Virus record (IMG/VR): IMGVR_UViG_3300024520_000007 | Location: 1 to 47,534 of that record | DNA: 47,534 nucleotides | From: a virus | Strand: one strand, 5' to 3' | Shown: positions 26,721-45,563 of the stretch, one piece after another | Layout of the letters: every line of letters starts with the position of its first letter | How positions within the stretch are numbered: position 1 is the first letter of the stretch | Made by a program: the position numbers and the translations under genes | The notes under the pieces: model-generated | Told to the model about the DNA's origin: nothing | Databases searched by the model: none | Seen by the model: the letters and a program-made list of their open reading frames with translations, nothing else

Positions 26721-28064
26721 ATGTCGTCATTTTTTCAATACAGGTATCCTCAAGCTGTAGCATTGACTCCTTTGATGAAACCTTATTTCGATGCCTTGCC
26801 CAAACAACAACTATTCATGGATTCAGAGAAAGCAGAGAACCTGTACTCAGGTGCCGTCCGAGCGGGAAAGAGTCGAGCCTTGATGGAGAAGCTGTACCAG
26901 ACAGCCGTTGAATATCCGGGTATCCGGTGCGGCGTGTTCCGAAAGGTGCGGTCAACTCTGGCAGAAACCACGCTACGGACATTGCTGGTAGACGTTATTG
27001 GCTGGGGGTCGGTAGAGAACGAGGAATCCGGCATTGTCAAGACCTACCGTAAATCGGACATGAAACTGATATTTTATAATGGGAGTGAAATAATCTTCTT
27101 CGGTATGGATAAGGAAACCAAGATAGGGTCGTTGGAATTGGGAGCGGCATTCTTGGATGAGGTACACGAGTTTGAAGAAGGTGATTGGAACATGATACAA
27201 ACACGGCTGTCACAACCCCTTTTGGAGAAACCGCAAATGTGGTCGGCTTGCAATCCAGCCAGCCCCACGCATTGGCTGTACGAAAAGTTCTTTCGTTCTC
27301 CAACGGAAGAAACGTTCAGCGTGGCTACCAACTCCTATGAAAATCCTTATTTGGGTGACGAATATATCGCACGGCTTAACCGTATGTCCGGCATTATGAA
27401 ACGGCGTTTAGTCGACGGGGAATGGGTGGGGTATGCCGGAGTTATCTACAACTGTTTCGATCCTGATAAACACCTGATTGACGAACCTTTTGAGGGGGAA
27501 CATATTAACTTCCGCTGTCTGGATTTCGGTGGCTTGAATCCTTATGTATGCCAATGGTGGAGATATTATCCAGAAACCAAACGCATGGTGCTGTTCCGTG
27601 AAATCTATTTCTCCGACATCTCTATAGAGGATTTCTGTCGCATGATCCACGAACATCAGCCGAAAGAGGAACCCGTTAACTTTACTGTATCTGACCATGA
27701 TGCCAGTGACCGTATATTCCTCGCCAAGCATGGCATTTTAACTTTATCGGCTCTGAAGGATGTGCGGAAAGGCGTGCAAGATACATACGAGAAAATCGCT
27801 AATGATGAAATCTATTTCGTTAAGGACACGGTAGTTGAACCTGATTGGAAGCTGAAAGATGATAGCGGAGCCATCAAGCGTAAACGTCCTCAGAGTACCG
27901 TAGAGGAATTGTCAGGTTACGAATGGGCGACTTCCGGCGATACAGCCAAGGATCAGCCTGTCAAACGTGACGATCATGGAATGGATGCAATGCGGTACGC
28001 CGTTGAAGCGATCATACACGGGCAGAATAAGAAACCGACTTGGAGTTATCTCAGGGGGGTATGA
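26721..28064 (+). CDS. terL: Terminase large subunit
   Basis: Walker A GAVRAGKSRAL, Walker B AAFLDEV, C-terminal nuclease motif DDHGMDAMRYAV. Confidence 0.9.
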   Translation: MSSFFQYRYPQAVALTPLMKPYFDALPKQQLFMDSEKAENLYSGAVRAGKSRALMEKLYQTAVEYPGIRCGVFRKVRSTLAETTLRTLLVDVIGWGSVENEESGIVKTYRKSDMKLIFYNGSEIIFFGMDKETKIGSLELGAAFLDEVHEFEEGDWNMIQTRLSQPLLEKPQMWSACNPASPTHWLYEKFFRSPTEETFSVATNSYENPYLGDEYIARLNRMSGIMKRRLVDGEWVGYAGVIYNCFDPDKHLIDEPFEGEHINFRCLDFGGLNPYVCQWWRYYPETKRMVLFREIYFSDISIEDFCRMIHEHQPKEEPVNFTVSDHDASDRIFLAKHGILTLSALKDVRKGVQDTYEKIANDEIYFVKDTVVEPDWKLKDDSGAIKRKRPQSTVEELSGYEWATSGDTAKDQPVKRDDHGMDAMRYAVEAIIHGQNKKPTWSYLRGV

Positions 28065-28365: not shown

Positions 28366-29802
28366 ATGGCATACGAACAGATAGCAGATTATAACGATAT
28401 CTACGAGAAGTACAGCACCGATTGGGATTTCTTTGAGCAATCTTATGTGGGCGGCAGAAGGTACGTTACCAATAAGAACTTGTTTCGCCATTCACGGGAA
28501 AACCAAGATGATTTTAATACACGGATGAAACGCAGTCCTTTTATCAATTATTGCCGACCCATTATTGATATCTATACCAGCTTCATCTTCGGCATTGAAA
28601 CCAATATTGCCCGAAACACTGAGAACGAAAGTTACCGTGCCTTTATTGAAGACGCTGATTATCAGGGTCACAATATGCACACGTTCATGGAACAGGTAGC
28701 TACCTTTGCTATGGTCTATGGTCATGTAGGCGTGGTGGTGGATATGCCGCAATCGGAGATGGATATCATCTCGATGGCTGACTTGCAAGCTACCGATATT
28801 CGCCCTTACTGTACATGGTATGACGCTCCAAATATTACCAACTGGCGTATGGATAAATTCAACCAGCTTCTGTGGGTACGATTAAGGGAACTGGATTACG
28901 CTGAAGTCGATCCTTTTGTTGAACAGTCTTCCTCATACAATTATCAGTACCGTACATGGACACGGACAGAATGGTATTTGCATGACTCTGACGGCAACCT
29001 CAAGGAATCGGGTGAACATGGGTTAGGGGTTGTGCCTTTTATCAGTGTCCAGTTTAAAGAGAATCCTGTTGACGAATTTGTAGGGATGTCGAGGTTGACT
29101 GATATCGCACCCATCAACCGATTATTGACCAATGTGATCTCATATATAGAAGAATTCGTTTCCAAGCAAGCATTCCCGTTTCTGGCTACTCCTGATGATC
29201 CGATAGGTGCAGGGATACAGCAAGAGGAAGAACAGGTTATTTCATCTTCCAATGTATACCAGTTTCCAGCAGGGTCGCAACCTCCACAATACGTTTCACC
29301 TCCGACTGATCCCGCCACGTTCATGCGTGAGTTCGCTTCCCAATATCTGGTAAAGGAGATGTTGAGGTTGGCACATTTGGAGTTCCGTGAACTGGCAGAG
29401 CAAAGCGGGGTGGCGAAGCAATACGATTTCCATCAGTTGAATCAGGTGCTTGTACGGTTCAGCCGAACATTGGAAGCCACAGAAACCAAGATGGCACGAT
29501 TGTTTGATAGATGGATGAATACTGAAACGGATTACGAGGTGGATTACCCTGACGATTTCCAGACCAACCCTGTACAGATGGCAATTGAAAACGGGTTGGA
29601 GATTCGCAAACTGATGGGAGACAAGTCACCGACTTTCGTTAATGCTCATTTGAGAAAACTGATGGAACAATTGGAACCCAAACTGTCGTCAGAAATACAA
29701 CGTATTATAGATGCTGAGATGGATGAGTCCACGCAGACCGAATTGATAATGACCAACATCGATGAGACTGTCAACGGCAATGGCACCTTCATGGCAACCT
29801 GA
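28366..29802 (+). CDS. Portal protein
   Basis: 478 aa, located after terL and before the MuF gene; GGAG RBS. Confidence 0.75.
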   Translation: MAYEQIADYNDIYEKYSTDWDFFEQSYVGGRRYVTNKNLFRHSRENQDDFNTRMKRSPFINYCRPIIDIYTSFIFGIETNIARNTENESYRAFIEDADYQGHNMHTFMEQVATFAMVYGHVGVVVDMPQSEMDIISMADLQATDIRPYCTWYDAPNITNWRMDKFNQLLWVRLRELDYAEVDPFVEQSSSYNYQYRTWTRTEWYLHDSDGNLKESGEHGLGVVPFISVQFKENPVDEFVGMSRLTDIAPINRLLTNVISYIEEFVSKQAFPFLATPDDPIGAGIQQEEEQVISSSNVYQFPAGSQPPQYVSPPTDPATFMREFASQYLVKEMLRLAHLEFRELAEQSGVAKQYDFHQLNQVLVRFSRTLEATETKMARLFDRWMNTETDYEVDYPDDFQTNPVQMAIENGLEIRKLMGDKSPTFVNAHLRKLMEQLEPKLSSEIQRIIDAEMDESTQTELIMTNIDETVNGNGTFMAT

Positions 29803-31730
29803 TGTCAATAAGCGATTATGAAAAAACCATCTACAATATGCGAAGCGTACCGCTTAAACGTACCAAGGAAGTGGAGGAACGTTTAATGACGGCACTGGAA
29901 ATGGCAAACGCTCAGTTACGGGTAATCATCGGGCAAGAGGATGAGCCGCTAAAGATTCGTGCCTATCAGGAAAAACGGATGAAGGTGGTACAAATGATGA
30001 ACGAGTTGGGTATCAGTCTCAAACGGGATATCACCGCCGCCATCAGCGAAGTTGTCAATGACATTGCCAGCACGGAACAGGACGCTACCAATGATTTGTT
30101 GCTGGAACATGACGATGCCAACCTGATGGTTGATTTCACCGAGATACCACGACAAACGATAGACGCTCTGGCTCATAGATACGATACGGAAGGTTTGAGA
30201 ATCTCATCCACTATTTGGGCGCAAGCGCAGATAGGTGAAATTGAAAATGTGGTTTTATCAGGTATAGCTAGAGGGCAATCAGCGGCAGAAATGAGTAACC
30301 AGTTATCGAAATTCATAATGGGTGGTGGTACGGGCATGGGGACGTCCGTCCAAGCTAAAGCCATGAGATTAGCACGAACAGAAATCAACAATGCGTATTG
30401 GGAATCAGCCAGAAGGTCGAGCGACCAAAGCCCTATTGTTGGAGCGGTCAAGTGGCAGTTGAGCGGGAGACATCCAGAATATGACGTTTGTAACTTGCTG
30501 GCTGAAAGCAGTGTGTTTCAATTGGGGCCGGGGGTGTATCCACCGGAATATTTGCCACCCAAGCCGCACCCTAACTGTCTGTGTTATCAGACAGATCTCC
30601 TTAGGCATCCTTCTTTGTGGGAAAAGCCGAAAAAGATTTACACTGATGCCGAATTGACCAAAGCCCTGACAACAGCCCTTCATACAGAAACACCTTCCTC
30701 TGCAACGGGAAGCAAGGGGTTCAAGGAAAAGCAATTACAGCTTTTCAAGGAAACGGTATCCAATGTAGTCAGAAAAGGACTGCCGGGGAAAGCTGTGTCG
30801 ACAGCGTTTTTGGAAGCTCCAGACTTGCCACCTGATACACCAGTAGCAACGCTGTACAATATGTTCCTTGAAGGAGGTAGGGCATTAGCTGAAAGACTAG
30901 ATGCGGGATTCAGTAAAAAAAGAGAGACGGACGTACATGGTTTTTATACGGGGAAATACGAGTGGAGACAGGATTTGACTGACAGCGACATTGGGTATGC
31001 TCAGAAAATAGGGTCGGCTTTAAGATCAGACGCTATCCCGATTTCGGTTAATATTCCTATCTCTGAGTCGAGAGTGTTCAAGGCAATGTTGAAATCAGGT
31101 CGGTCGAAGAACCTGTTTGAAACTGGCAGGGGGTACGGCTCAGCCGATAAAAAAAGGCGTGCGGGTTGGGAAGCATCGTTGGTTTCCGAAGGGCTTGACC
31201 AGCAGGATAAAGCTGAGGGGGAGAAACTCTATGATGAAATGCCGCCAAGAGAGAAACCCAGCTACGGTGCTTTGAATCTGGGTAATGATCCTAAAGGTGC
31301 GGCTTCTCAATATGGTAAAGCGTATTTTGAAATGGAACCTCACGTTAAGAATCGGTCTACTTTCACTCCCAACAATTCTTCACAAACTTCTCAGGTTTCT
31401 ACTTTTAGAAATGCGGAAACCTTTTCACTGTCTGAGGAAGGCAGGGAATATCAAGGCTCGGTGGATGCCAACAGGAAAGACCCAACCAAATATATCGAAG
31501 TGCAGATTTGGAACGGGTTTGATTTCAAGAAAGACGTTAAAGCCTTGCATATCAACCGATCCGTCTTGAAGGAGCTAAAAAAAGTACCCGATTTCTGGGA
31601 TGCTAAAACTAAATCTTATCGACCTGATATCATGGCGGCTGACTACCTAGAAATTGATGGGGATTTACGAGAGTTTGCCGACAAATACGATGTGGAAATA
31701 GTGGTGCATGAGGACGAGGATACCGAATGA
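29802..31730 (+). CDS. MuF / SPP1 gp7-like head morphogenesis protein with a C-terminal extension of about 375 aa
   Basis: VKWQLSGRHPEYDVCNLL...PKPHPNCLCY is the MuF signature; tgATG overlap with the portal gene. Confidence 0.8.
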   Translation: MSISDYEKTIYNMRSVPLKRTKEVEERLMTALEMANAQLRVIIGQEDEPLKIRAYQEKRMKVVQMMNELGISLKRDITAAISEVVNDIASTEQDATNDLLLEHDDANLMVDFTEIPRQTIDALAHRYDTEGLRISSTIWAQAQIGEIENVVLSGIARGQSAAEMSNQLSKFIMGGGTGMGTSVQAKAMRLARTEINNAYWESARRSSDQSPIVGAVKWQLSGRHPEYDVCNLLAESSVFQLGPGVYPPEYLPPKPHPNCLCYQTDLLRHPSLWEKPKKIYTDAELTKALTTALHTETPSSATGSKGFKEKQLQLFKETVSNVVRKGLPGKAVSTAFLEAPDLPPDTPVATLYNMFLEGGRALAERLDAGFSKKRETDVHGFYTGKYEWRQDLTDSDIGYAQKIGSALRSDAIPISVNIPISESRVFKAMLKSGRSKNLFETGRGYGSADKKRRAGWEASLVSEGLDQQDKAEGEKLYDEMPPREKPSYGALNLGNDPKGAASQYGKAYFEMEPHVKNRSTFTPNNSSQTSQVSTFRNAETFSLSEEGREYQGSVDANRKDPTKYIEVQIWNGFDFKKDVKALHINRSVLKELKKVPDFWDAKTKSYRPDIMAADYLEIDGDLREFADKYDVEIVVHEDEDTE

Positions 31731-32072: not shown

Positions 32073-32906
32073 ATGGCTGAAGAAACCATTGAGCAACAAC
32101 CACAAGTTGAACCGCTAGTTGAACCGATGAAGGGGAATATGTCTTTCACGGAAGAACAGCAAACCTATATAGATAATACCTTGATTCCAGAACGGTTGAC
32201 CCGATTGCGTAAACAGATGGAAAAGTCTGTGGACGCTCAGGCTAATCAGGAAGAAAGGGAAGAATTAACCAAGTATCGCCAAGCCGAAGCAGAACGGTTA
32301 TCAGCGGAAGAAGCCGAAAAACAGAAACAAGCTGAAGAACGGGGTGAGTTTCAGCGTATCCTTGAAGAAAAGGATACTGCTTACTCGAGAACCCTTGACG
32401 AACTGAACCAAGCCTTGGACACGGAACGCCGATCTTCGGAACGGATGTTTCTTTCTAATAGCTTGCAGTCGTCTTTGGCTCGGAGTAAAGGGGGGATATT
32501 GCCGAACATGATAAATATCGCCGCTACTCAACTGGAAGTGGGAACGCCGCTATTGCCAAATTCTGACGATTTATATCGTGCCACCGCAGTGAAGAATGAG
32601 GATTCGGGATATCGGGTTTCGCTTACCGATACGAATGGACATTCGGCACTCAACGATAAAGGTGAAGATCTGAGTTTGGATGAAGCTGTGGAACTGTTCT
32701 TGGACAGGCATCCCGCTTTTATCCCTGCCAACGTGAGAAACGGAGGCTCAGGATCACACAATTCCAGAATGACTCAAGCTGATTCCTTGCGCAAAGATTA
32801 CGAAACAGCTATGGAAAAAGCGGGGAAATCTGGGCAACGGGCAGACCAGAATGAAATGATGCGGCTACGGCGAGAACTAAGCAAAATTGAAGGAGATACA
32901 TCGTAA
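32073..32906 (+). CDS. Scaffolding protein
   Basis: Glu/Lys/Gln-rich coiled-coil sequence located immediately before the capsid gene. Confidence 0.65.
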   Translation: MAEETIEQQPQVEPLVEPMKGNMSFTEEQQTYIDNTLIPERLTRLRKQMEKSVDAQANQEEREELTKYRQAEAERLSAEEAEKQKQAEERGEFQRILEEKDTAYSRTLDELNQALDTERRSSERMFLSNSLQSSLARSKGGILPNMINIAATQLEVGTPLLPNSDDLYRATAVKNEDSGYRVSLTDTNGHSALNDKGEDLSLDEAVELFLDRHPAFIPANVRNGGSGSHNSRMTQADSLRKDYETAMEKAGKSGQRADQNEMMRLRRELSKIEGDTS

Positions 32907-34039
32907 TGGCATTTACAGGTAGAGCGACTTATTCTAATCCTACGGCAATAGCGGAAGATGTTTCTGATATTATCACTATGATTAGTCCTTTTGAAACTCC
33001 ACTTTTGGATTATTTGGGTGATTCAGTTCGACCAGCAACAAACGTTCTACACGAATGGCTGGAAGAAAGCCTAGCACCTCCATCCATTATCAACTCCACC
33101 GCTATTACTTCCGATACGGCTAATACGACATTCCGTATCAATGGCACGGGCGATTCCATTCAAACTGGTGACTTGCTCAGGATCACGGGTAACAGTTCGT
33201 TGACCTATGAAGAAGTAATGCAAGTTACAGCTACAGCAACCAACTCCATTACCGTTCTCAGGGGCGTAGGCTCAGTCGGCCCGTCATCTTTGGCTCCGGG
33301 CGGGACGGTTGAACTTATCTCCAATGCTACCATTGAAGGTGCAGACGTCAGTGGTGACATTTCCCAAAACAGAACACGCAACTACAACTGGGTACAAATC
33401 TATCGTAAATCGGTAGAAGTTTCCGACACGGAACAAGCCGTAAGCCAGTTGGGTGATATCTCTAACGAATACGATCATCAACTTCGTAATCGTACCCGTG
33501 AGATTTTGCGTGATTTGGAAAAGAACCTTATCTTGGGTGTTGACGCTGGCAACAGTTTTGCTTCCGCTTCAACGTATCGTACCATGAAAGGTATCTGGAG
33601 ATATATCACCACTAACCAGCAATCAGCCGCTACATTCAGTGAGTCCTTCCTTAATGCAGTTGTTATCAAATCCGCATGGGATAACGGCGCACAGGACTTG
33701 GATTTCATTGTAGCAGATGCCAACCTCAAACGTGAGATTGACAATCTGGCAGACAGCCGTATCAGGCAAACGATGGACGATGAAACTTACAAGAGCGAAA
33801 TTACGCTTTATGAAAGTTCCTATGGTCGACAGCAGATATTGCCGCCGAACAGATGGATGCCGACTAACAGCCTGATGGTATTGGCTAGTGATCGCATCAA
33901 CGTTCTACCGTTGGATGGTATGAGCTTCCAGCAGAAACCTCTCGCCACAACAGGACTTGCCACCAATGGCGTAGTCTTTGGTGAGTACACGGCTGAAGTT
34001 CGCAATGAATCAGGATTGGCAAGAGCCAACCTAACATAG
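32906..34039 (+). CDS. Major capsid protein (HK97 fold; the N-terminus resembles the SU10-type family)
   Basis: AEDVSDIITMISPFETPLLDYLG N-terminal motif; size and position; taATG overlap with the scaffold gene. Confidence 0.8.
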   Translation: MAFTGRATYSNPTAIAEDVSDIITMISPFETPLLDYLGDSVRPATNVLHEWLEESLAPPSIINSTAITSDTANTTFRINGTGDSIQTGDLLRITGNSSLTYEEVMQVTATATNSITVLRGVGSVGPSSLAPGGTVELISNATIEGADVSGDISQNRTRNYNWVQIYRKSVEVSDTEQAVSQLGDISNEYDHQLRNRTREILRDLEKNLILGVDAGNSFASASTYRTMKGIWRYITTNQQSAATFSESFLNAVVIKSAWDNGAQDLDFIVADANLKREIDNLADSRIRQTMDDETYKSEITLYESSYGRQQILPPNRWMPTNSLMVLASDRINVLPLDGMSFQQKPLATTGLATNGVVFGEYTAEVRNESGLARANLT

Positions 34040-34075: not shown

Positions 34076-34108
34076 GGGGTGAACCGTCCGGCATAAGCGG
34101 TTCATCCC
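34076..34108 (+). terminator. Stem-loop after the capsid gene (possible attenuator)
   Basis: 11-bp stem GGGGTGAACCG/CGGTTCATCCC (one G-U pair); the downstream U tract is poor. Confidence 0.35.
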
Positions 34109-34124
34109 ACCCTTTAATAATATT

Positions 34125-34604
34125 ATGAAAATGGGGTTCACTTGCGGATCATTTGACTTGCTTCATGCGGGTCATGTGCTGATGTTGGAGGAATGCAAAA
34201 ACAACTGTGATTATATGGTTGTAGGTTTGCAGACTGATCCCACCGTTGACCGCAGAGAAAAACAAAAACCTATCCAAACCGTGTATGAACGGTTCATCCA
34301 GTTAAGAGCCGTCAAATACATAGACGAAATTGTTGTCTATGAAACGGAAACCGACTTGATGAACGTGTTGTTGTCGTTGATGCCAGATATACGGTTCTTG
34401 GGTGAAGACCATAAACAGAAGGATTATACAGGTAAGGGCATTGAGGGAATTGAAATCATGTTTAACATGAGAAAAAATGATTACAGTTCTACCGATTTGC
34501 GTAACCGATGCGTGGAAGTTGTTTCCTTGTATCACAGCACCATGTCACATGACACGGATATTGAACGTGACGAGGAAATGCGCCCATTGGAGCCTATCAA
34601 ATAA
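34125..34604 (+). CDS. Cytidylyltransferase-family nucleotidyltransferase (TagD / RfaE domain II-like)
   Basis: GFTCGSFDLLHAGHVLML carries the HxGH signature. At 159 aa its size fits glycerol-3-phosphate cytidylyltransferase-type enzymes. Confidence 0.8.
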   Translation: MKMGFTCGSFDLLHAGHVLMLEECKNNCDYMVVGLQTDPTVDRREKQKPIQTVYERFIQLRAVKYIDEIVVYETETDLMNVLLSLMPDIRFLGEDHKQKDYTGKGIEGIEIMFNMRKNDYSSTDLRNRCVEVVSLYHSTMSHDTDIERDEEMRPLEPIK

Positions 34605-34605
34605 T

Positions 34606-34791
34606 ATGGAACATCACGATACTCTTAACCAATTTCTAAAACACCATCCCAATCGGGATTTCAACCCTAATTTCGTTGACAAGGTAAAGAAATCAATCGA
34701 ATTAATGATGAACACCCTTCAAAACCAGAACAACGAAATAGCCAAGCTGAAAAAGCAAATCAAAAAGGAAAATCCAAAGGAAAATCCATGA
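34606..34791 (+). CDS. Hypothetical protein (61 aa)
   Basis: ATG lies 1 nt after the upstream stop, and ATGA overlaps the next gene. Confidence 0.45.
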   Translation: MEHHDTLNQFLKHHPNRDFNPNFVDKVKKSIELMMNTLQNQNNEIAKLKKQIKKENPKENP

Positions 34792-37688
34792 AATACAATA
34801 TCGCTTTCTATTGCAAGTCCATACCCTTCACAGCCGATGCCATCAACCTCAACTCCAGTTTAGGAGGTAGCGAATCAGCCTTGGTATACATGGCACGGGA
34901 ACTGGTGAAACGGGATCATAAAGTTACCGTATTCACTGAGTTCGCTGATCCTGAGAAGGATGTGGGTGTTTATGACGGTGTTCGATGGGAATCTGTGGGT
35001 AACCTATACCCTTGTTGTGAAGCGATGGATTACGAGATCTTTATCAGTTTGAGGATGTGGGAGATTATGGACGCCCCCATCCAAGCCAAGTACAAAATAT
35101 TATGGAATCAAGATGTGTTGAGCCGACCCAAAGACGTAGCGGGGTCGATCTATAAAACCGATGAAATGATGTATGTCTCCAATTGGCAACGCCAGAACTA
35201 TGAAGGGCAGTTACCAGAAGTGGTACATAATCTCGGTTATGTGACAAAGAACGGTATTGATCTGGAAACGGTAGACCGAAATATTGAACGGGATGAAGAC
35301 GGTAAGATTATCAAGGATAAGAACAAGCTGATTTATATCAGCCGACCAGAACGGGGGTTGGCTCCCTTATTGAAGATATTTCCCAAGATGCTCCAGAGCC
35401 GCCCGAATTTGCAATTGAAAGTGGCACGCTATTATTCTATGTATGAACCCAACCCCGAAGTGAAACGCATTTGTGATGAAGCTGATAAGATTATGGAAGT
35501 AACGGATAACGTGGAATATCTGGGCAACTTGGGTAAAGACGAATTGTATCAAGAAATAGCGTCCAGCAACTTGATGGTTTATCCGGGCGTTCCCCATTTT
35601 GATGAAACAAGTTGTATCGCCGCCCTTGAAGCTCAAGCCTGTCAAACCCCGCTTATCTGTTCCTCTAAAGGTGGATTGGTGGAAACCATGAACGCCTTTG
35701 CTGGAGCTAAAATCGAAGGGAGTGCCTTTACCGATGAATACCATCAGGAATTCATTAAACAAGCCTTCTACCTGATGGATAATGACCAAGCCTATGAACG
35801 TGCGCAGAAAGATGGGAGAGCTTGGGTGGAAAGGAATTATCAGTACAAAGATATAGCAGGGGAGTGGGAAGAACATTTTGATGATTTCTTTGAACGGCGA
35901 TATGCTGAGAACAAAAACAAAGTAGTTGAGAACCTTATACATTTCGATGATTTCTTTGCCGCTAGGGTAGCCGATCCCGATTGCGTATTACCCGAAGCTA
36001 ACGAGTCACCCGAAACCTACGCTAAGAACGCCATTGCCATCAGTGACGAAATTGGTGAAGGGCGGTTCCGTGCCATGTTGACGGTTGCCCGTGAATGTAA
36101 CCCTGCACCTGACCGTATATTGGATTTTGCTTGCGGTAACGGTTCTTTGACCCATGACTTGAAAACGGTATTCCCAGACGCTGAAGTCATGGGGGTGGAT
36201 TATGCTTCCGACCTGATAGAAAAAGCAATTATCTTCTGTGAAGAACGGGAGGTGGATATTGAGTTTAGGGTAGGTTCGTTTGAAGCGGTGGATGAAACAG
36301 AGAAATTCGATATCATTATGTGCGGTGAATTTCTGGAACATCACGACGATTATAAAAATGTGATTGAGTACATGGAAGCCAGATTAGCACCCGAAGGGTA
36401 CATTATCTGGTCAGTACCTCACGGGGCATTACATGAACACTTGTTAGCTACTAGCGGTTCGGTTAGGTTGGGCAATGGTAGGTTGGTGGAGTTAGAAATA
36501 CGGGGTCACAAAATACACTGGGACTATTCCACTATCCATGAAGTATTTGGTGAGAAACCCAACTTCATTGCTTCACATTTGTGCTACCCACCAACGCCAA
36601 GAGGATGTATGACAGGCTGTTTCGTTATCAGGCATCAGCAAGGGGTTACGGGTGAGGTTAATTGGGATCGCAAGATAAAGACCATGCGACCGTATCAATC
36701 CCTATCAGTTTGTATGATAGCCAAGAACGAATCCAAAGATTTGGAACGGTGTTTGGCTTCGGTGGAACGCATAGCTGATGAGATTATTCTGTGTGATCAT
36801 GGTTCCTATGACGACACGGTAGCAATTGCTGAAAGGTTCGGAGCCAAGGTAAAGCATATGCCAGCCTTTTGCCCTGATTTACCAGCCATTACCGACATGG
36901 ATGGCAACCCCATTAATATCCCCGCTCCGGGCAGTTTTGAGTGGGCGAGAAACGCTTCTATCGAGGATGCTGTAGGGGATTGGATATTGTGGATTGATGC
37001 TGATGAGGTGTTGGAGAGTCCTCTGTTTTTGCGTCAGCATTTGGATACCTCTATCTATGAAGGGTTCGTTGTCAGGCAGAACCATTTGATTTGGGATGCT
37101 GAGAACAGGCATGACAAACCCGTGAGACTGTTTCGCAATAACAAGGGGTATCGATTCTGGGGAGCCATCCACGAACATTGCCAGAAAGATATTAACTCAC
37201 CGATAGAGCCAGCATTTGAACTTCAGCATACCCAGATAATGCACTACGGCTATATCACGGAAGCTGGTAGGCAAGATAAATGTAAGGACAGAAACCTTGC
37301 CTTATTGATGGTTGACAGAGTGCTTAATCCTGAGCGGGAATTGGGTAAGGTGCTGTTACAACGTGACTATTTGAACATGGTACATTGGGAAGTGCAGAAA
37401 CACGGGCAAGTGACACCTCAAGCGAGGGAATATCTGACCACCATTATTGAATTGTATCAAACCAACTTCACCGATCCAAAACAACGAATGCACGACCTCA
37501 GTTTTGAGCAGTATCAAAAAGCTCTTGAATGGTTGGATCACGGTATTCCGTTTAATGTTTCCATTGAACCAGCCAGTAAGGAAAACCTTAATGGAGCCAA
37601 ACGGTTCTTATCGCATGATGAATTACAAACGTATGTAGCCAAACAAACGGCTGAAGCCCTTGACCAATCAGGGTTCATAATTTCATAG
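34788..37688 (+). CDS. Trifunctional fusion: GT4-type (GT-B) glycosyltransferase, class I SAM methyltransferase, GT2-type (GT-A) glycosyltransferase
   Basis: SLGGSESALVYMARELVKRDHKV and ETSCIAALEAQACQTPLICSSKGGLVET (GT4); ILDFACGNGSLTHDL...FDIIMCGEFLEH (MTase); LSVCMIAKNESKDLERCLASV...ILCDHGSYDDT...WILWIDADEVL (GT2). Confidence 0.85.
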   Translation: MKYNIAFYCKSIPFTADAINLNSSLGGSESALVYMARELVKRDHKVTVFTEFADPEKDVGVYDGVRWESVGNLYPCCEAMDYEIFISLRMWEIMDAPIQAKYKILWNQDVLSRPKDVAGSIYKTDEMMYVSNWQRQNYEGQLPEVVHNLGYVTKNGIDLETVDRNIERDEDGKIIKDKNKLIYISRPERGLAPLLKIFPKMLQSRPNLQLKVARYYSMYEPNPEVKRICDEADKIMEVTDNVEYLGNLGKDELYQEIASSNLMVYPGVPHFDETSCIAALEAQACQTPLICSSKGGLVETMNAFAGAKIEGSAFTDEYHQEFIKQAFYLMDNDQAYERAQKDGRAWVERNYQYKDIAGEWEEHFDDFFERRYAENKNKVVENLIHFDDFFAARVADPDCVLPEANESPETYAKNAIAISDEIGEGRFRAMLTVARECNPAPDRILDFACGNGSLTHDLKTVFPDAEVMGVDYASDLIEKAIIFCEEREVDIEFRVGSFEAVDETEKFDIIMCGEFLEHHDDYKNVIEYMEARLAPEGYIIWSVPHGALHEHLLATSGSVRLGNGRLVELEIRGHKIHWDYSTIHEVFGEKPNFIASHLCYPPTPRGCMTGCFVIRHQQGVTGEVNWDRKIKTMRPYQSLSVCMIAKNESKDLERCLASVERIADEIILCDHGSYDDTVAIAERFGAKVKHMPAFCPDLPAITDMDGNPINIPAPGSFEWARNASIEDAVGDWILWIDADEVLESPLFLRQHLDTSIYEGFVVRQNHLIWDAENRHDKPVRLFRNNKGYRFWGAIHEHCQKDINSPIEPAFELQHTQIMHYGYITEAGRQDKCKDRNLALLMVDRVLNPERELGKVLLQRDYLNMVHWEVQKHGQVTPQAREYLTTIIELYQTNFTDPKQRMHDLSFEQYQKALEWLDHGIPFNVSIEPASKENLNGAKRFLSHDELQTYVAKQTAEALDQSGFIIS

Positions 37689-37697
37689 GAGATATTT

Positions 37698-38306
37698 ATG
37701 GCAGTCCGAGCAAGTATGAGCGACCTCATTACCTATACCAAACGCTTAGTCAATCAGACAGCGGCGGCATCACCTTGGACAGAACAGCAGATACAGGATG
37801 TTCTTGACCAGCATCGGACGCATTTCAATTTCATATTGCTTGACCATGACAGCCAGTATAACTTCTATTATACCCGTGCCTATAACCGTGAATCGTTGGC
37901 ACTTGCCGACAGCCTTACATACGGGGAAAGCAACTTGTCAGGAGTCACGGTTCCCGATTTCAGTCTGTATACTCAAGTGGGATTCTTTGAATCCGATATA
38001 GCCTTATATAATGGCAGGGATACCAGTAACACAGCGCATTCGCCCGACGATACCAACCTTTATGACGGCACGTTCATATTCAGTACGGCTCCTGATACTG
38101 ACTTATACGTTTTCGGTAAGGGTTACAACGTTTGGGCGGGAGCGGCTGACCTATTACTCGAAACACCTGATTTCGGAAGGTTGCCCTTGAAATCTGAATC
38201 ACGGGGAGCCGTATCACAGACAATTTCTTGGAATGATAAAATCACCATGTATTATCAGCGGGGAGCCAAGCTGAACCGCAGAATAACCAAGCTGTTGAGG
38301 GCATGA
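37698..38306 (+). CDS. Virion protein, possible head-tail adaptor
   Basis: AGGAGA RBS; called from position only. Confidence 0.4.
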   Translation: MAVRASMSDLITYTKRLVNQTAAASPWTEQQIQDVLDQHRTHFNFILLDHDSQYNFYYTRAYNRESLALADSLTYGESNLSGVTVPDFSLYTQVGFFESDIALYNGRDTSNTAHSPDDTNLYDGTFIFSTAPDTDLYVFGKGYNVWAGAADLLLETPDFGRLPLKSESRGAVSQTISWNDKITMYYQRGAKLNRRITKLLRA

Positions 38307-38307
38307 T

Positions 38308-38643
38308 ATGAACCTGTTTATAAACGCTACTGATATCACGACTGTGACGATCAATCAAATGGTGTTCAGTCAGGATAGCGACTTCAATTACACTGATGCC
38401 GATTCAGCTTTACAGACGGATGTACAGGTAGATATTCAACCGTTCCAAGTGCGTTATGCGGAATCGGAATCGGGGGGTACGACACGGATAACGCACCTGA
38501 TGTTTTCACAGCAATATGCTAATGTGACATCAGCCCAGAAAAGCGGAGATGTAAGCGTTACAGATGGCGCAACAACCTACGATATACGCACTGTGAAGGA
38601 TTATGTCTCCCACATGGAATCTGAGCTAGAGGAACGGACATAA
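38308..38643 (+). CDS. Head-tail joining (head closure) protein-like
   Basis: Size, position and pattern (...DIQPFQVRYAESESGG...YDIRTVKDY). Confidence 0.45.
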   Translation: MNLFINATDITTVTINQMVFSQDSDFNYTDADSALQTDVQVDIQPFQVRYAESESGGTTRITHLMFSQQYANVTSAQKSGDVSVTDGATTYDIRTVKDYVSHMESELEERT

Positions 38644-38996
38644 TGGGGTTCGATCTGAAATTCAACAAAGTCAAAGCCAATCAAGCGTTGACCAAACAAC
38701 GGCAGATTATTAACAAGATTGAAACCAAAGCGCATCAGGTGCTTGATGCAGTCGCTAGGGAAGGGGTGAACGCTTCCAAAGACAAAGGCAGGGCTGACAC
38801 ATGGCAAGATCAAACAGGGAACCTCAGAAGCAGTATTGACCATTTTGTAGAGAAAACTTTTAAGGGTGAGCAAGCTGTTGTGTTTGCTGGTATGGATTAC
38901 GCCCCATTCGTCCACTTTCGGGATGGGTACAGGGTGTTGGTCATGCCCGATAGCGATACCATAAAGAAATATACCAACATACTCAAAAACCTATAA
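38643..38996 (+). CDS. HK97 gp10-like head-tail connector
   Basis: WQDQTGNLRSSI...VVFAGMDYAPFV resembles the gp10 family (TGNLR.SI, Y..fvE). Confidence 0.6.
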   Translation: MGFDLKFNKVKANQALTKQRQIINKIETKAHQVLDAVAREGVNASKDKGRADTWQDQTGNLRSSIDHFVEKTFKGEQAVVFAGMDYAPFVHFRDGYRVLVMPDSDTIKKYTNILKNL

Positions 38997-40180: not shown

Positions 40181-40398
40181 ACACAAAATTCAAATGGATG
40201 GGGCAGGGAGAATCCAATTACATTCCCGAAGTGCCGTGTCCTTTGTATGAAGATCAACATTCAGTTGTCGTTACTCCGAATTATTGCATGGAGTCCAAAT
40301 GCGTGTGGTTCAGCCACTATTATGAGGACGGGGTGGAATGCAAACATGGTGATGATGATTGGAAACAACAGCTAACAGCTAGAGGGGTAATATTGTAA
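40168..40398 (+). CDS. Hypothetical Cys-containing protein (76 aa)
   Basis: ORF track only. Confidence 0.35.
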   Translation: MGKLNTKFKWMGQGESNYIPEVPCPLYEDQHSVVVTPNYCMESKCVWFSHYYEDGVECKHGDDDWKQQLTARGVIL

Positions 40399-40931
40399 TG
40401 GCTACGAATCAACAAAAACTAATGGTCGGTGCAGGGTCAGTTCTAACGGATGTTGCTACCACCGCAGGGAATTTTTATGATCTTGGGGGATACCGTGACA
40501 GCTTGTCTATTCGGTTCTCCGAAGAACGGTTCAACTTGGAAGTAGCGGATCATCTTTGCTATGTCAAATCGGTACGAACACGATTGGACGCTTTCGTCAA
40601 TACTTCGTTGGTGCAAGCTACCCATGAAAGTCTGATAAATGCTATCGGGTTCACCGCCGCCAGTATGCCAGCAACAGCGGCTACTTCAATGGAACTGAAG
40701 ATCCAAGAACCGGGAATTTCAGCCATGAAATTTATCGGTGGAACAGCAGGGTCTACCGCTTCCTTCGACTTGGTGAGTTATATCTTCAGCCAAACCGTAC
40801 CGATGACTGATGCCGAATTGTCATACGCCAAAGACGGTGAAACCTTGATACCTATTTCTTACATGGTATTAGGAACCATATCAGGTGCTAATGCTTCCTT
40901 CGGTTGGGTTGATCAATCAGTCAGTATTTAA
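40398..40931 (+). CDS. Major tail (tube) protein
   Basis: Size, position just upstream of the chaperone and TMP genes, and a tube-like pattern (GSVLTDV...LGGYRDSLSIRFSEE...LSYAKDGETLIPISYMVLG). Confidence 0.55.
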   Translation: MATNQQKLMVGAGSVLTDVATTAGNFYDLGGYRDSLSIRFSEERFNLEVADHLCYVKSVRTRLDAFVNTSLVQATHESLINAIGFTAASMPATAATSMELKIQEPGISAMKFIGGTAGSTASFDLVSYIFSQTVPMTDAELSYAKDGETLIPISYMVLGTISGANASFGWVDQSVSI

Positions 40932-41738: not shown

Positions 41739-44700
41739 ATGGCTGTAATTGAGCAACTGGGAAACCTAGAATACAAGATCACGCTTAACACCACTGAGCT
41801 TGAACGGGGACAGAAAAAAGCGTCTTCCATCATGTCGAGGTTGGATACCAACCTAGGCAGACTTGCCAATCTCACCCTAGCATCTCAAGGTATAACGGCA
41901 TTCTCCAAACGTATTATCAGCATGGGGACTGATGTTATCAAAGCGGCTACTACTATGCAGTCCTTGGAACGTGGGTTGAGGGCGGTTGCTGGTGGAGCGG
42001 CGGCGGCAGATGCCCAGTTGATCGGGTTGCGTGAAGTAGCTAAATTGCCCGGACTTGGGTTACAGGAAGCGGTACAGGGAGCCGTCAACCTTCAAGCGGC
42101 AGGGTTATCAGCAGAACGGGCAACCGATTCACTGAAAGCCTTTGGTAATGCTCTGGCTACCGTAGGGAAAGGCAAAGCTGAACTTGACGGAGTAATACTT
42201 GCACTGACCCAGATGCAAGCTAAAGGAAAGCTCAGTGCCGAAGAAATTAATCAGATTGCAGAACGGGTTCCTCAGATCCGTAGAGTTATGGTGGAAGCAT
42301 TCGGCACAGCCATCCCAAAAGAAATTGAAAAGATGGGGATCAGTGTTGACGACTTCATTGATCGGGTCAATAAACAGTTAATGACATTACCTCAAGTTGT
42401 GGGTGGTGCGGCAAACACGTTTGAGAATCTTGGCGATACCATCTTTGAAGCTAAAACCCGTATCGGAGAATTATTCCTTCCAGCAGTCCTGTCAGCCGCC
42501 GAAGCGTTTGCTTCAGCTTTAGGGGATGTCAACCGAGCCTTAACACCTCTAAGTGACCAAGTAAAATCTGATATAGCCGCATGGGATTCATTGAAAACCC
42601 AGTGGCAAGCCCAAGATACTGAAATCACGAAATTGGTCGGGCAATACAATACTTTGCAGACCCGTTTGAAAGCCATCACCGAAAGCGGTGGTGATACCCA
42701 TGCCGTCCAAGCTGACCTTGAGAGGGTCAATAAGAGCTTGATCGAACTGGTTCCTCAATTGGGTGTTGCTTACGACAAAGAAAAACAAGCACTGGTAGGA
42801 CTGAATGAAACCCTTGAAAGGCATCGGGAAGCCAAAGGCAGAATGCTCAGGATGGCATTTAGGGAGAATCTTGAGAAAACCACCAAGGCAACGAAAGAAG
42901 CTACTGCCGCTGAAAAAATAGCTATAAAGCAACGTGATTTACAGTTGTACATAATGAAAAGGGTGAAAGAGGAAATATATGAAGTAGGGGAAGCAACAGG
43001 TAGGTTTGGTATTGAGATAGCTTTGAATACCGCAACCATGAAAAAAGCAACTACGGTTTCTCAGCTTTACAGAGATGCTAGAGAGGAGTTGGGTCTAACT
43101 GAAGAAGAAACCTCAAAGTCAGAAACCAAATTGAGGGCGGGGTTGAAGGAAAAGCTGGGTCTGGAGCAAGCCTTGGCTCTCCAAATTGGAGCTTCAACCG
43201 ATAAGGTAAACACCTACCGAACAGAGATAGAAAGTTTACAGGGAACGGTCAGGTCTTATGTTGAAACAACAGGCAAAAATAATGTAGAGCAGTTTAATAA
43301 ATTGGTGGACATTTATTCTAGTCTCCATGATGAGCAAGGGAAATTAAAGGAGATCACCCCAGAATATACAACCGCATTGAACAAACTAGCCACTCAAGTA
43401 AATTTAACAGGCACGGCACTGGAACAGGGGTTAGGCGCAAAGATCACGGTAGTGGAAGATAAGTTGGTCGCAGTTACCGAAAAAGATAGGTTTCCGGGGA
43501 TATTCCTTGATGCAGAAATCAAAGTGCCTACCGATGCAGAAATCAGCAAGAAAATTAGAGACTTTACCAGCAAAGTTAAAGACGCTATTGATTTGGTAGC
43601 CACTGAAGCTAAAGATGAAGGGAAGTATGATCCTAAGCAGGTCATGGAGGATCAACTTGATACTCTGAAATCGATGCTCAAAGCTGAAGGCATAACTGAA
43701 GCACAGCTTAAAAAAGAATACACGGCAATCTATACGGCACGGGCTAACCTGAGACATAACCTCAAGACAATTAATGACGGGATAGCCAAAGCGCAAGCGG
43801 ATAAAGAAATAGCCGAAAAAGCACGGGCAGATCAGGCGAATACTGCAAGTGGTAACGCCTACAACGCAATGATTAAAGGCTGGCATGAGGCAGAAGTCAA
43901 GGGAGCGGGAGAAGCCGCTACTGCTTTGATGGGTATCGTTGAGGGGAAAATTGATGACCATAAAGAACTAGAAGAAGGGTTGAATGACGTCATCTTGGGA
44001 TACCAAAACGCTACCACGACAGGGCAAGTTGACGCTTTAGACGCCCAGTTTAATGCTTTGAAAGAGCAACACCCTGAGACGTTACTGGAAGTAGCTCGTT
44101 TCCACGGCTTACAGGATGACGCTGATGAAGCCCGTGCCAATGCCCGAATTAAGTACAACAAAGATGCAGACAATAAAATCCTCGAAGATACCGAAGACTT
44201 TATCAATGACAGGGTCGAAGATGAGGAAGATGCCGCCGTCCTGAGGAAAAAGATAATCGACGATCTTGCATTGAAAGAAGCAAATGTAATGGCGGCGTAC
44301 ATAAAAGCATGGGATGAAGTTGGTAGTGCGGTCGTGGATCTGGCGTATCTTATAGACACGGATTTGGGGCAAAGTATGGAAACGGCTCTTATGGTAGGGG
44401 GGGCGTTCTTGGACACATGGCACGCTGTTAATTTGGCGATGGCGGGTGCTGGAACTTGGTGGACAGTAGCCGCAAAAGGGATTACGTTTGCCGCTAGTAT
44501 CGCTTCTATCGTTTTCGGTGAGAGTAAAAGTGCGGCTAAACGAAGGGAATTGTTTGAAGATTTGGAGAAGATTAAAGGTGAAGTTTCAGATTTGCGTAGC
44601 AGGGCAAGGGTAGGAGATAGTTGGGTAGATAGGTTCTTTGATCCAAAGAAAATCAAAGCGGCTGAAGAAGCATTAGCAACGGCATGGGACAGATTCCATA

Positions 44701-45563
44701 ATATCAGGGGTGATCTTGCCTTGAATCAAGATGAATGGGATCGATTGTTTCAAACAAGGCAAAATGCGTGGAAGGCGGCATCAAGAGAATTAGACAAAGT
44801 ACGGGAAGAAGAAGCAAGGAAAGAAATAATTTCAGCAGAAAACGAAAAGCTCCTACTCAAGCAAAGAATCGCCGAGATTGAAGGGTTGACAAGTGATTTA
44901 ACAGGAACAATCACTGATTCCTTGATTGAAGGAATGGATGAATTTGGGGGAGGATGGCAAAATGTCCAAGATGCTATATCCTCCAACCTAAGCAGGGCTA
45001 TCTTTAAAGGCATCGTCGATGCTCAAGTATCAAAACATCAGCTAGAACCTCTGGTTGAAAGATATGTAGCATTTTTGACTGATGCTATTTCGGGGCCAAG
45101 TGGGGAGCTTAATTGGCAAGAAAATCAGACCCTTAGGCAAATGGAAGGGGATATTCGTTTAGCGGCAACACGGATTAAAAACAATACGGAAGCGTTACTG
45201 AATGAAGCGTGGGATTTTAATTGGGAAGATGTTTCCCCAGACGAAGAAGACCTTGCTGATATCACTCCCTCTATTATACCCACTATAGATGTTCCCGAAA
45301 CGTCTACAGGGTTGACCACCAGTATCCGCAACATTACCCGTTCCCAAGCTGATGCGCTGTCAGCCGTATTCTCCAACATCTCAGCCATTAACGGAAGAAT
45401 AGCCGATAACACTTTACGGACAGCCGATTTGTTGGAAACTTATTTGCCTTCCATCTCAGGAGGGGGAATGATGGTGCAGTCAACGGATGTGGGAGGGGCA
45501 AGTTGGGTAGATCCAGCTTACGAAGCAATGATGCTTCAAAACGCTAACAGGGCAAATGGATAA
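41739..45563 (+). CDS. Tape measure protein (1274 aa)
   Basis: Length, long coiled-coil content, hydrophobic segment MVGGAFLDTWHAVNLAMAGAGTWWTVAAKGITFAASIASIVFG, and position. Confidence 0.9.
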   Translation: MAVIEQLGNLEYKITLNTTELERGQKKASSIMSRLDTNLGRLANLTLASQGITAFSKRIISMGTDVIKAATTMQSLERGLRAVAGGAAAADAQLIGLREVAKLPGLGLQEAVQGAVNLQAAGLSAERATDSLKAFGNALATVGKGKAELDGVILALTQMQAKGKLSAEEINQIAERVPQIRRVMVEAFGTAIPKEIEKMGISVDDFIDRVNKQLMTLPQVVGGAANTFENLGDTIFEAKTRIGELFLPAVLSAAEAFASALGDVNRALTPLSDQVKSDIAAWDSLKTQWQAQDTEITKLVGQYNTLQTRLKAITESGGDTHAVQADLERVNKSLIELVPQLGVAYDKEKQALVGLNETLERHREAKGRMLRMAFRENLEKTTKATKEATAAEKIAIKQRDLQLYIMKRVKEEIYEVGEATGRFGIEIALNTATMKKATTVSQLYRDAREELGLTEEETSKSETKLRAGLKEKLGLEQALALQIGASTDKVNTYRTEIESLQGTVRSYVETTGKNNVEQFNKLVDIYSSLHDEQGKLKEITPEYTTALNKLATQVNLTGTALEQGLGAKITVVEDKLVAVTEKDRFPGIFLDAEIKVPTDAEISKKIRDFTSKVKDAIDLVATEAKDEGKYDPKQVMEDQLDTLKSMLKAEGITEAQLKKEYTAIYTARANLRHNLKTINDGIAKAQADKEIAEKARADQANTASGNAYNAMIKGWHEAEVKGAGEAATALMGIVEGKIDDHKELEEGLNDVILGYQNATTTGQVDALDAQFNALKEQHPETLLEVARFHGLQDDADEARANARIKYNKDADNKILEDTEDFINDRVEDEEDAAVLRKKIIDDLALKEANVMAAYIKAWDEVGSAVVDLAYLIDTDLGQSMETALMVGGAFLDTWHAVNLAMAGAGTWWTVAAKGITFAASIASIVFGESKSAAKRRELFEDLEKIKGEVSDLRSRARVGDSWVDRFFDPKKIKAAEEALATAWDRFHNIRGDLALNQDEWDRLFQTRQNAWKAASRELDKVREEEARKEIISAENEKLLLKQRIAEIEGLTSDLTGTITDSLIEGMDEFGGGWQNVQDAISSNLSRAIFKGIVDAQVSKHQLEPLVERYVAFLTDAISGPSGELNWQENQTLRQMEGDIRLAATRIKNNTEALLNEAWDFNWEDVSPDEEDLADITPSIIPTIDVPETSTGLTTSIRNITRSQADALSAVFSNISAINGRIADNTLRTADLLETYLPSISGGGMMVQSTDVGGASWVDPAYEAMMLQNANRANG

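Follow-up and report, generated by a model that had tools for sequence, protein, structure and literature searches.

A glycosyltransferase–methyltransferase–glycosyltransferase fusion encoded beside the major capsid gene of uncultivated phages and its possible role in virion glycosylation

The virus record IMGVR_UViG_3300024520_000007 of IMG/VR, analysed here over its whole length of 47,534 bp (positions 1 to 47,534) and called the window below, encodes a single polypeptide of 966 residues that joins a GT4-like glycosyltransferase, a methyltransferase dependent on S-adenosylmethionine (SAM) and a GT2 glycosyltransferase. The gene for this fusion lies between the major capsid protein (MCP) gene and those for the head-tail connector. 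In this article, we describe the fusion and its relatives and argue that it may be an enzyme for the glycosylation of virion proteins.

Organization of the locus

The fusion protein is also found, in identical form, on two ENA contigs of 47,548 and 47,564 bp that are differently permuted; therefore, the window is an essentially complete siphovirus-like genome of an uncultivated phage. Every long open reading frame (ORF) lies on the + strand. The genes of the locus are closely spaced, and starts and stops overlap between neighbours. No match to the region was found by megablast among GenBank phages at the DNA level. A reading made earlier from the letters alone (the sequence-only reading) had placed a stem-loop directly after the MCP gene and three genes between the MCP and the connector genes, the last of which would carry GT-B, SAM methyltransferase and GT-A (DADE) modules in one protein. 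All of these were recovered, each module above its Pfam cutoff, and the small ORF of 61 residues is real. The features are as follows.

32906-34039, + strand: MCP, SU10/DUF5309-type, HK97 fold (PF17236 SU10_MCP, 1e-66; phrog_1328, 2e-63)
34076..34108, + strand: GC-rich hairpin in the spacer downstream of the MCP gene (fold -30.4 kcal/mol, z = -3.3)
34125-34604, + strand: cytidylyltransferase-like nucleotidyltransferase with an HxGH motif, 159 residues (PF01467, 4e-15; phrog_7878, 2e-37)
34606-34791, + strand: small ORF of 61 residues, with an ATGA overlap with the fusion start and an independent ENA gene call
34788-37688, + strand: GT4–SAM methyltransferase–GT2 fusion, 966 residues, with three Pfam domains above cutoff
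34788..35912, + strand: fusion module 1, residues 1-375, retaining GT-B/GT4-like (Glycos_transf_1, 3.9e-14)
36099..36662, + strand: fusion module 2, residues 438-625, class I SAM-dependent methyltransferase (Methyltransf_31, 6e-18; Methyltransf_25, 1.5e-14)
36693..37253, + strand: fusion module 3, residues 636-822, GT-A/GT2 of the GmaR/SunS group (Glycos_transf_2, 9.2e-14)
37260..37685, + strand: C-terminal helical region of the fusion resembling tetratricopeptide repeats (TPR; residues 825-916, helices from the AlphaFold2 model) and variable tail
37698..38306, + strand: first gene after the fusion, 202 residues, a conserved gene of the head-tail connector region (cluster 27)

Domain architecture of the fusion protein

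Glycos_transf_1 (PF00534) matches residues 170-345 of the fusion with 53 bits (cutoff 26.4), Methyltransf_31 and Methyltransf_25 match residues 443-545 with 65.4 and 54.9 bits (cutoff 27 for both), and Glycos_transf_2 matches residues 640-779 with 52 bits (cutoff 23.3). The corresponding signatures are an EX7E motif (E273 and E281), the methyltransferase motif I LDFACGNG and the DADE motif (737-740). AlphaFold2, given an alignment of 47 homologues, predicts one confidently packed body (pLDDT 91.5, pTM 0.90). The model lays out a GT-B fold (1-375), a helical linker (376-437), a Rossmann methyltransferase (438-625), a GT-A fold (636-822) and a four-helix TPR-like region (825-916), the helices of which (825-846, 851-872, 877-893 and 902-916) have pLDDT values above 90. 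No transmembrane segment is predicted in the fusion, the maximum 19-residue Kyte-Doolittle average being 0.85.

Conservation of the motifs was scored in 71 homologues from both of the phage lineages described below, with 26-94% identity to the window protein. In the GT4 module, GGSE (26-29), RPER (186-189) and E281 are invariant or nearly so, and E273 is glutamate in 66 of the proteins and aspartate in 5. D446, G452, D471, E514 and H518 are conserved in the methyltransferase module. In the GT2 module D737, D739, E740, H795 and E796 are invariant (71/71) and H819 is present in 69, while R835 and N836 in the C-terminal helical region are invariant. Because the catalytic residues are invariant or nearly so in all 71 proteins, all three activities appear to be maintained.

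Module 1 resembles a retaining GT4-like enzyme with two Rossmann domains. Its structural matches by Foldseek are BshA, ManT, HepE and PimA, at a target TM score of about 0.7, and the second-best of them is ManT, the methylmannose-polysaccharide mannosyltransferase. The methyltransferase module has PDB profile matches to 3mgg, 3bus, MitM, UbiG and the D-glucose O-methyltransferase 6uv6 (2e-12), distant matches by which it resembles small-molecule and sugar O-methyltransferases.

In a PDB profile search the GT2 module matched GmaR (3.8e-39), SunS (2.3e-25) and ThuS (9.6e-24); the next GT2 enzyme, chondroitin synthase, followed at 3.9e-11 over only about 90 residues, a gap of more than 12 orders of magnitude in E-value. 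Residue-level alignment with the GmaR/SunS group reveals the DADE, IHE and HYGY motifs in common, and the Foldseek alignments to SunS and ThuS extend over 290-310 columns, which take in both the GT-A and the helical domain. Among GT2-type models of NCBIfam, the SunS family (TIGR04195) fits the fusion best, though far below its equivalog cutoff. The module is a distant relative within the protein- and peptide-glycosylating GmaR/SunS group and not a SunS orthologue. The C-terminal helical region is presumed, by analogy, to be the substrate-recognition part.

Distribution of the fusion family

A search of 5.8 billion proteins returned 642 matches; the best 120 of these metagenomic relatives are nearly all full length (about 940-1130 residues), have 32-94% identity to the window protein and come from contigs of 4-64 kb. 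A profile scan of IMG/VR identified 133 contigs that encode relatives of the fusion. By tblastn against 50,697 GenBank phage records, single-domain matches and no fusion were found, and no Mycobacterium phage matched at E 1e-5 or better. A scan of 185,579 bacterial and archaeal species, with one genome each, gave 277 matching stretches. Among the best 80 of these loci there were three full-length relatives, all in metagenome-assembled genomes (MAGs), and the remaining kept loci were single-domain; one of the three full-length loci (L167) lies in an obvious phage head module. On these searches, the family is large and almost exclusive to phages. The searchable literature on capsid glycosylation and on the fusion contained no description of this family, and a structural search of BFVD gave no full-length twin (best query TM 0.34). 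The fusion and its position, which the sequence-only reading had called unusual, are so only among cultivated phages; in uncultivated ones they are recurrent and conserved.

In some of the loci compared (L040:10004-12937 plus downstream, L070 and L043), a second copy or a fragment of the fusion lies directly downstream of the first, so that cluster 0 occurs twice.

Linkage to the capsid gene

Loci were compared in the best 80 of the 133 IMG/VR contigs, with ORFs called, clustered and identified with PHROGs and Pfam, and the linkage to the MCP gene was counted in those 70 loci that extend upstream of the fusion for 2 kb or more. Of these, 59 have an upstream MCP gene on the strand of the fusion, and it belongs to one of two different MCP families. 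In SU10-type loci the MCP gene is within 1.7 kb of the fusion in 25 of 27 cases, with a median gap of about 280 nucleotides, and the order is scaffold, SU10-type MCP, 0-3 small ORFs, fusion and connector genes. In loci with a phrog_1005/gpE-type MCP it is within 2.2 kb in 30 of 32 cases, and the order is protease (phrog_976), small head protein, MCP, 0-3 ORFs and fusion, followed by Mu gp36-like and Neck1/tail-completion genes and later by the tail tube (Phage_tube_2). The view that the fusion belongs to the late structural operon is thus borne out. Cultivated phages with SU10-type MCPs (Lietuvens, CB452P1, Bernal13 and SCYZ1) go straight from the MCP to the connector genes.

A neighbour-joining tree of the fusion proteins is cleanly split by MCP type, which indicates that the fusion has been inherited vertically with the head module over a long time and was not captured repeatedly. 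Divergence between the two capsid lineages, compared domain by domain, showed no domain-specific signal for the helical domain such as substrate co-adaptation might leave (ratios 0.54-0.79).

In some loci of the gpE-type lineage (L029:3913-4449, L036, L046 and L055), HNH/NUMOD4 homing-endonuclease genes lie between the MCP gene and the fusion, so that mobile genes, too, have landed in this spacer. A radical SAM protein of about 243 residues (PF04055, 4e-9; 13 ORFs of cluster 13) is encoded within a few genes of the fusion in the same lineage, in L063:5584-6315, L027, L040, L045, L052, L054, L059/L060, L074 and L167:9564-10397, the last from a Gammaproteobacteria MAG. In L058, L061 and L062 (e.g., L058:5765-12805; one of the contigs is 372 kb), FkbM/TylF methyltransferases and a TPR protein precede the fusion and there is no recognisable MCP gene, which may represent a polysaccharide-type or jumbo-phage context. 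In the GenBank metagenomic phage ctKR88 (L081, MW202524.1 1-12000), the MCP gene is followed by a long run of separate genes, among them a 761-residue 'beta4glucosyltransferase', gtA, a yqgM-like gene, two methyltransferases and a HAS-type synthase. This is a different, unfused glycosylation island at the same place.

The spacer after the terminator-like hairpin downstream of the MCP gene is a common landing site, with homing-endonuclease genes (cluster 46) inserted there and a cytidylyltransferase that looks recently acquired (55-65% identity to homologues, some on contigs over 100 kb), so that the fusion could itself be a moron-like passenger at a permissive insertion site with no role tied to the virion. 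We consider this very unlikely, since the split of the fusion tree by capsid type holds at identities as low as 26%, purifying selection acts on each of the three active sites, almost no fusions occur outside phages, and a conserved partner ORF, the stop of which overlaps the fusion start codon, accompanies the gene.

The hairpin and the small genes upstream of the fusion

The hairpin, with its core stem at 34076-34108, lies in an 85-nucleotide intergenic RNA; the -30.4 kcal/mol given above is the folding energy of this whole RNA, and only one of 200 dinucleotide shuffles of it was as stable. It is followed on its 3' side by CUUUAAUAAUAUU, a weak and not a clean U tract, and a scan for consensus terminators did not call it; because of this, we do not call it a proven intrinsic terminator. 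A hairpin of -15 kcal/mol or stronger follows the MCP stop codon in 22 of 26 SU10-type and 19 of 28 gpE-type loci, several of them with U tracts. The element looks like an attenuator, a partial terminator or an mRNA-stabilising element between the capsid and enzyme genes, and its recurrence is consistent with a capsid product made in high copy and enzymes encoded after it made in low copy.

The cytidylyltransferase-like protein has 56.6 bits with PF01467 (cutoff 21), and its HxGH motif reads LLHAGH near the N-terminus; the ENA call of the gene starts 11 codons later and gives 148 residues. The sequence-only reading had named it an HxGH cytidylyltransferase of TagD/RfaE-II type. The family and the motif agree with this, but the protein stays below the equivalog cutoffs of both rfaE_dom_II (TIGR02199, 75.7 against 181.5) and TagD (TIGR01518, 55.3 against 165.4). 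Its PDB matches are the ethanolamine-phosphate cytidylyltransferase 3elb (1e-19, the best) and TagD 1coz (2e-11). Homologues of about 135 residues are many and 55-65% identical, and annotation pipelines label them glycerol-3-phosphate cytidylyltransferase. With the two cutoffs missed, the idea of a decoration with glycerol phosphate gains no specific support. Nor does the gene belong to the conserved module, because it occurs in only 2 of the 80 loci, L001 and L023, in the second of which its place is downstream of the fusion, amid the connector genes. From this pattern it looks like a recent, lineage-specific accessory outside the core system.

The small ORF is more closely tied to the fusion. 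Its ATG lies 2 nucleotides past the cytidylyltransferase stop codon, and its TGA overlaps the fusion ATG as ATGA. Homologues in clusters 56, 58 and 37 abut the fusion start in L001-L004, L072, L012, L025, L069 and L079, and in the SU10-type lineage the small ORF always abuts or overlaps the fusion start. Clusters 56 and 58 have the motif F..H...R.FNP.F in common; the coiled-coil proteins of cluster 37 are more loosely related. The 61-residue protein has no family match in Pfam, PHROGs or NCBIfam. The small proteins are charged, helical and coiled-coil-like, without conserved Cys, Ser or Thr; because of this lack of conserved acceptor residues, the 61-residue protein is more likely a partner or adaptor than a substrate.

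This bears on the possibility that the fusion glycosylates a protein or peptide outside the virion, such as flagellin, pilin, a receptor, a scaffolding protein or the 61-residue product itself in the manner of a glycocin or another ribosomally synthesised and post-translationally modified peptide. GmaR acts on flagellin, and SunS and ThuS act on small peptides encoded alongside them (PMC6405829); a conserved small ORF stands directly upstream here, its stop overlapping the fusion start, and a radical SAM gene recurs nearby in the gpE-type lineage. The small proteins, however, are charged coiled-coil helices that have neither conserved Cys, Ser or Thr nor glycocin-like Cys pairs, export and immunity genes are not nearby, and a host-directed or toxin role would hardly account for a position that two lineages have kept between the capsid and connector genes. 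A target outside the virion is decidedly unlikely.

Candidate acceptor and proposed function

The conserved adjacency with the fusion makes the MCP the prime candidate substrate. PDB relatives of the MCP are 9ny2, 9in6 and the SU10 capsid 7z45. Directly after its spine helix, the window MCP has the loop GNSFASAST (about residues 215-223), and the equivalent loop is N-S-L/F-G-S/T in its relatives and S-N-V-G-S in gpE-type capsids; this Ser/Thr-rich loop is a candidate acceptor site. Many gpE-type MCPs also have short C-terminal tails that contain Ser, Thr or Cys, which recall the glycan sites reported at the C-terminus in mycobacteriophages (cited in PMC12619734). N-glycosylation sequons were considered and rejected: the insertion domain of the MCP (residues ~60-160) has five N-x-S/T sites, but these are not conserved in relatives, and the enzymes are of GT4/GT2 and not of PglB or NGT type.

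It is somewhat more probable than the contrary, on the evidence of gene linkage and by analogy with the GmaR/SunS group, that the fusion decorates virion proteins with a methylated sugar chain. The domain identities, the motif conservation, the synteny with MCP genes and the confinement to phages are results of the comparison; what is modified, with which sugars and in what order, we infer as follows. The fusion would be a soluble, self-contained enzyme made late and in catalytic amounts by read-through past the post-MCP hairpin, and the decoration would take place in the cytoplasm before or during assembly. The GT-A module with its helical domain would bind the protein substrate and move the first sugar from a nucleotide sugar onto Ser, Thr or Cys; the N-terminal retaining GT4 module would then add one or more sugars, and the central SAM methyltransferase would O-methylate the glycan, possibly as a cap. 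The 61-residue protein would act as a conserved partner of the fusion, and the cytidylyltransferase, a sub-lineage accessory, may boost or create the activated donor. The proposal of virion-protein glycosylation in the sequence-only reading is retained in part: the capsid-gene linkage and the GmaR/SunS-group GT2 module speak for it, while the role given to the cytidylyltransferase and, as regards uncultivated phages, the unusual character of the system are not supported.

Several observations weigh against virion decoration. The acceptor type is extrapolated from distant relatives, the SunS equivalog model (TIGR04195) giving 38.4 bits against a cutoff of 350. No cultivated phage among the GenBank records searched carries the fusion. 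Gene order is correlative, and many phage structural operons hold unrelated inserts; 11 of the 70 loci lack a recognisable MCP gene upstream, and in L058, L061 and L062 the fusion sits among FkbM/TylF methyltransferase and TPR genes. The loop motif N-S/T-hydrophobic-G/A-S/T tracks the fusion strongly in the raw counts, 38 of the 39 MCPs that accompany a fusion having it and 7 of the 22 others, but this comparison is confounded by phylogeny, and some MCPs counted as without may carry a fusion beyond the 6-kb flank (L064/L103 lineage). Finally, glycans linked to lipid at the membrane can likewise be substrates of soluble GT4/methyltransferase enzymes.

The last point leads to an envelope function, in which the fusion would extend and methyl-cap host glycans (undecaprenyl-linked O-antigen, capsule or teichoic-acid intermediates) at the inner membrane face late in infection. 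This might mask receptors, prevent re-adsorption of progeny to debris or exclude superinfection. Combinations of GT4 and methyltransferase are typical of polysaccharide elongation and capping, ManT is the second-best structural match of the GT-B module, the FkbM-/TylF-type methyltransferases and TPR protein around the fusion in L058, L061 and L062 would suit such a pathway, and the cytidylyltransferase resembles the envelope-pathway enzymes TagD and RfaE-II; peripheral membrane enzymes, moreover, need no transmembrane helix. The GT2 module, however, groups with GmaR, SunS and ThuS and not with polysaccharide synthases, the fusion adjoins the MCP gene in two capsid lineages with a tree that splits by capsid type, it is almost absent from bacterial genomes, polysaccharide loci included, and the ORFs scanned included neither a flippase nor an integrase nor genes of Gtr type. 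Action on the envelope is accordingly rated unlikely. Serotype conversion, which had already been judged less likely from the letters, is further disfavoured by the lack of a transmembrane segment and of integrase and Gtr-type genes among the ORFs scanned, by the near absence of the fusion from bacteria and by the place of the gene in the head module.

Returning to the decoration of virion proteins, a fuller scenario combines these elements. The family would be an ancient, phage-exclusive glycan assembly line in one polypeptide, kept in the head module of at least two large lineages. The GmaR/SunS-like module would prime the loop after the spine helix (or the Ser/Thr/Cys-containing C-terminal tails of gpE-type capsids), and the GT4 module would extend the glycan. 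The methyltransferase would cap it or alternate with the GT4 module, giving a methyl-hexose chain as in the mycobacterial methylmannose polysaccharide, and the partner of about 60 residues would help. Taken with all its parts, this scenario is tentative and somewhat doubtful.

To our knowledge, virion glycosylation by virus-encoded enzymes has so far been shown experimentally in a few actinobacteriophages and in giant algal viruses. The present family would extend it to a large number of uncultivated phages that are widespread in the environment and are represented by 133 or more contigs of IMG/VR and 120 or more clusters of proteins. If the fuller scenario is true, capsids with a glycan coat are common among phages of the environment, well outside the actinobacteriophages, and can be predicted from a simple sequence marker. 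Glycan coats could alter capsid stability, stickiness to particles and mucus, grazing and recognition by antibodies, the last being relevant to phage ecology and to the design of therapeutic phages. In practical terms, the fusion offers an easily recognised marker gene and a compact single-protein candidate system for priming, extension and methylation that can be tested by co-expression with the neighbouring capsid gene, and it adds to the GmaR/SunS group a new branch that might be useful in glyco-engineering.

Other features of the genome

The fusion is followed by connector, neck and tail genes. The ribosome-binding site of the 202-residue gene overlaps the fusion stop codon (sequence TAGGAGATATTTATG). 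Its product has no family match in Pfam or PHROGs, and its cluster is found 3' of the fusion in L001-L004 and L023. The remaining landmarks of the window are given below; no tRNA gene was found in the window, and no integrase among the ORFs scanned in it.

Start of the window: lectin-like tail proteins
23074-24834, + strand: ParB-DNA methyltransferase (phrog_498, 6.5e-129)
26721-28064, + strand: large terminase
28366-29802, + strand: portal
29802-31730, + strand: MuF-like head protein
32073-32906, + strand: probable scaffold
38643-38996: connector/neck gene (phrog_5, Neck1/tail completion)
40398-40931: tube protein
41739-45563, + strand: tape measure

The first ORF (13-2466, + strand) encodes an 817-residue protein with two ConA-like lectin (Laminin_G_3) stretches and a CBM_4_9 domain, which by these domains is probably a glycan-binding receptor-binding protein; it is followed by a 1116-residue protein (2467-5817, + strand) with matches to minor tail proteins. 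The MuF-like head protein (642 residues) has a long C-terminal extension that recalls the cargo or toxin domains fused to MuF, and its relatives in phages at about 45% fusion identity have 1,726-1,987 residues (L002:1267-7227; L003:1220-6397). Just upstream of the packaging genes, a 380-residue ORF (24831-25973, + strand) has in its C-terminal half an aspartyl/asparaginyl beta-hydroxylase domain (PF05118, a 2-oxoglutarate/Fe oxygenase, E 6e-13) and is a second candidate protein- or lipid-modifying enzyme. Where the small terminase would be expected, a 245-residue ORF (25970-26707, + strand) resembles enzymes dependent on pyridoxal phosphate (PALP 2.4e-7, below cutoff; phrog_7093 'threonine dehydratase', 1e-33).

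Directly 5' of the hydroxylase-like gene lies the fusion of a ParB-like nuclease domain with a DNA methyltransferase. Its presence could be taken to favour hypermodification of the phage DNA, in which the GT4–methyltransferase–GT2 protein would glycosylate and then methylate modified bases for restriction evasion; phage glycosyltransferases commonly glycosylate hydroxymethylated bases (bioRxiv 10.1101/2023.12.21.572611). Against this, no hydroxymethylase, TET/5mYOX or thymidylate-synthase-like gene was found among the ORFs scanned, the glycosyltransferase fusion lies in the head module and not in the replication module, and its GT2 module resembles protein glycosyltransferases, so that DNA as the substrate is barely credible.

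Comparison with known systems

Modules of Gtr type for lysogenic conversion differ from the phage fusion, which has no hydrophobic segment, is encoded in the head module and is accompanied by no integrase among the ORFs scanned. Some bacterial enzymes, soluble or peripheral, unite glycosyltransferase and methyltransferase activities in one protein, which assembles a glycan and caps it with methyl groups. Geobacillus WsaE has a methyltransferase and two rhamnosyltransferase domains and serves the S-layer glycan, and WbdA/WbdD of E. coli O9a are a second example. WsaE and WbdA/WbdD act on lipid-linked intermediates, which a separate oligosaccharyltransferase or ligase transfers later; the phage fusion, in contrast, is accompanied by no oligosaccharyltransferase or ligase, ABC transporter or lipid-carrier enzyme.

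Among phages, the nearest parallel is found in mycobacteriophages. In Corndog, the gp35 O-methyltransferase and the gp36-38 glycosyltransferases are encoded inside the structural operon, and these enzymes are made in infected cells and are absent from virions (PMC4351075). In mycobacteriophages of Che8 type, glycans are reported to sit on subunits of the capsid and the tail tube (Freeman 2023, cited through PMC12619734). The likeness is in the presence of glycosyltransferase and methyltransferase genes among siphovirus head genes, here in the order MCP, hairpin, cytidylyltransferase, small ORF, fusion and connectors. The hosts of the present phage are probably not actinobacteria, and we know of no GmaR/SunS-type module described for mycobacteriophages. 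The parallel drawn with them in the sequence-only reading does not extend to homology, none to mycobacteriophage glycosylation genes having been found by tblastn.

The chlorovirus PBCV-1 provides a multidomain enzyme for a capsid glycan. A single polypeptide, A064R, has two glycosyltransferase domains and a methyltransferase; it elongates the MCP glycan and methylates the terminal sugar (PMC7826918). A064R, like A111/114R, thus recalls the phage fusion. It differs in its length of 638 residues, its domain order (glycosyltransferase, glycosyltransferase, methyltransferase), its origin in a eukaryotic giant virus, its N-linked glycans and its elongation of a glycan rather than priming on protein. 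It is absent from the top 50 structural matches of the fusion in BFVD, and the resemblance is a functional analogy and not a demonstrated homology.

For the GT2 module, the closest solved relatives of residues 635-831 are GmaR, SunS and ThuS. GmaR is the O-linked N-acetylglucosamine transferase of flagellin in Listeria, and recognition of the protein substrate has been proposed as the role of its TPR domain (PMC9638930); enzymes of SunS type attach sugar to Cys, Ser or Thr residues in peptides (PMC6405829, PMC12457901). These enzymes work in the cytoplasm, where they transfer sugar from a nucleotide donor directly to a side chain in a protein or peptide, and they have in common with the phage module a GT-A (GT2) domain that bears the motifs DxD(E), IHE and H-x-G-Y and has a helical domain of TPR-like form behind it. 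Unlike the phage module, they are stand-alone cellular proteins, with an added anti-repressor domain in GmaR, whereas the phage module stands behind a GT4 enzyme and a methyltransferase and has an insertion of ~28 residues relative to GmaR.

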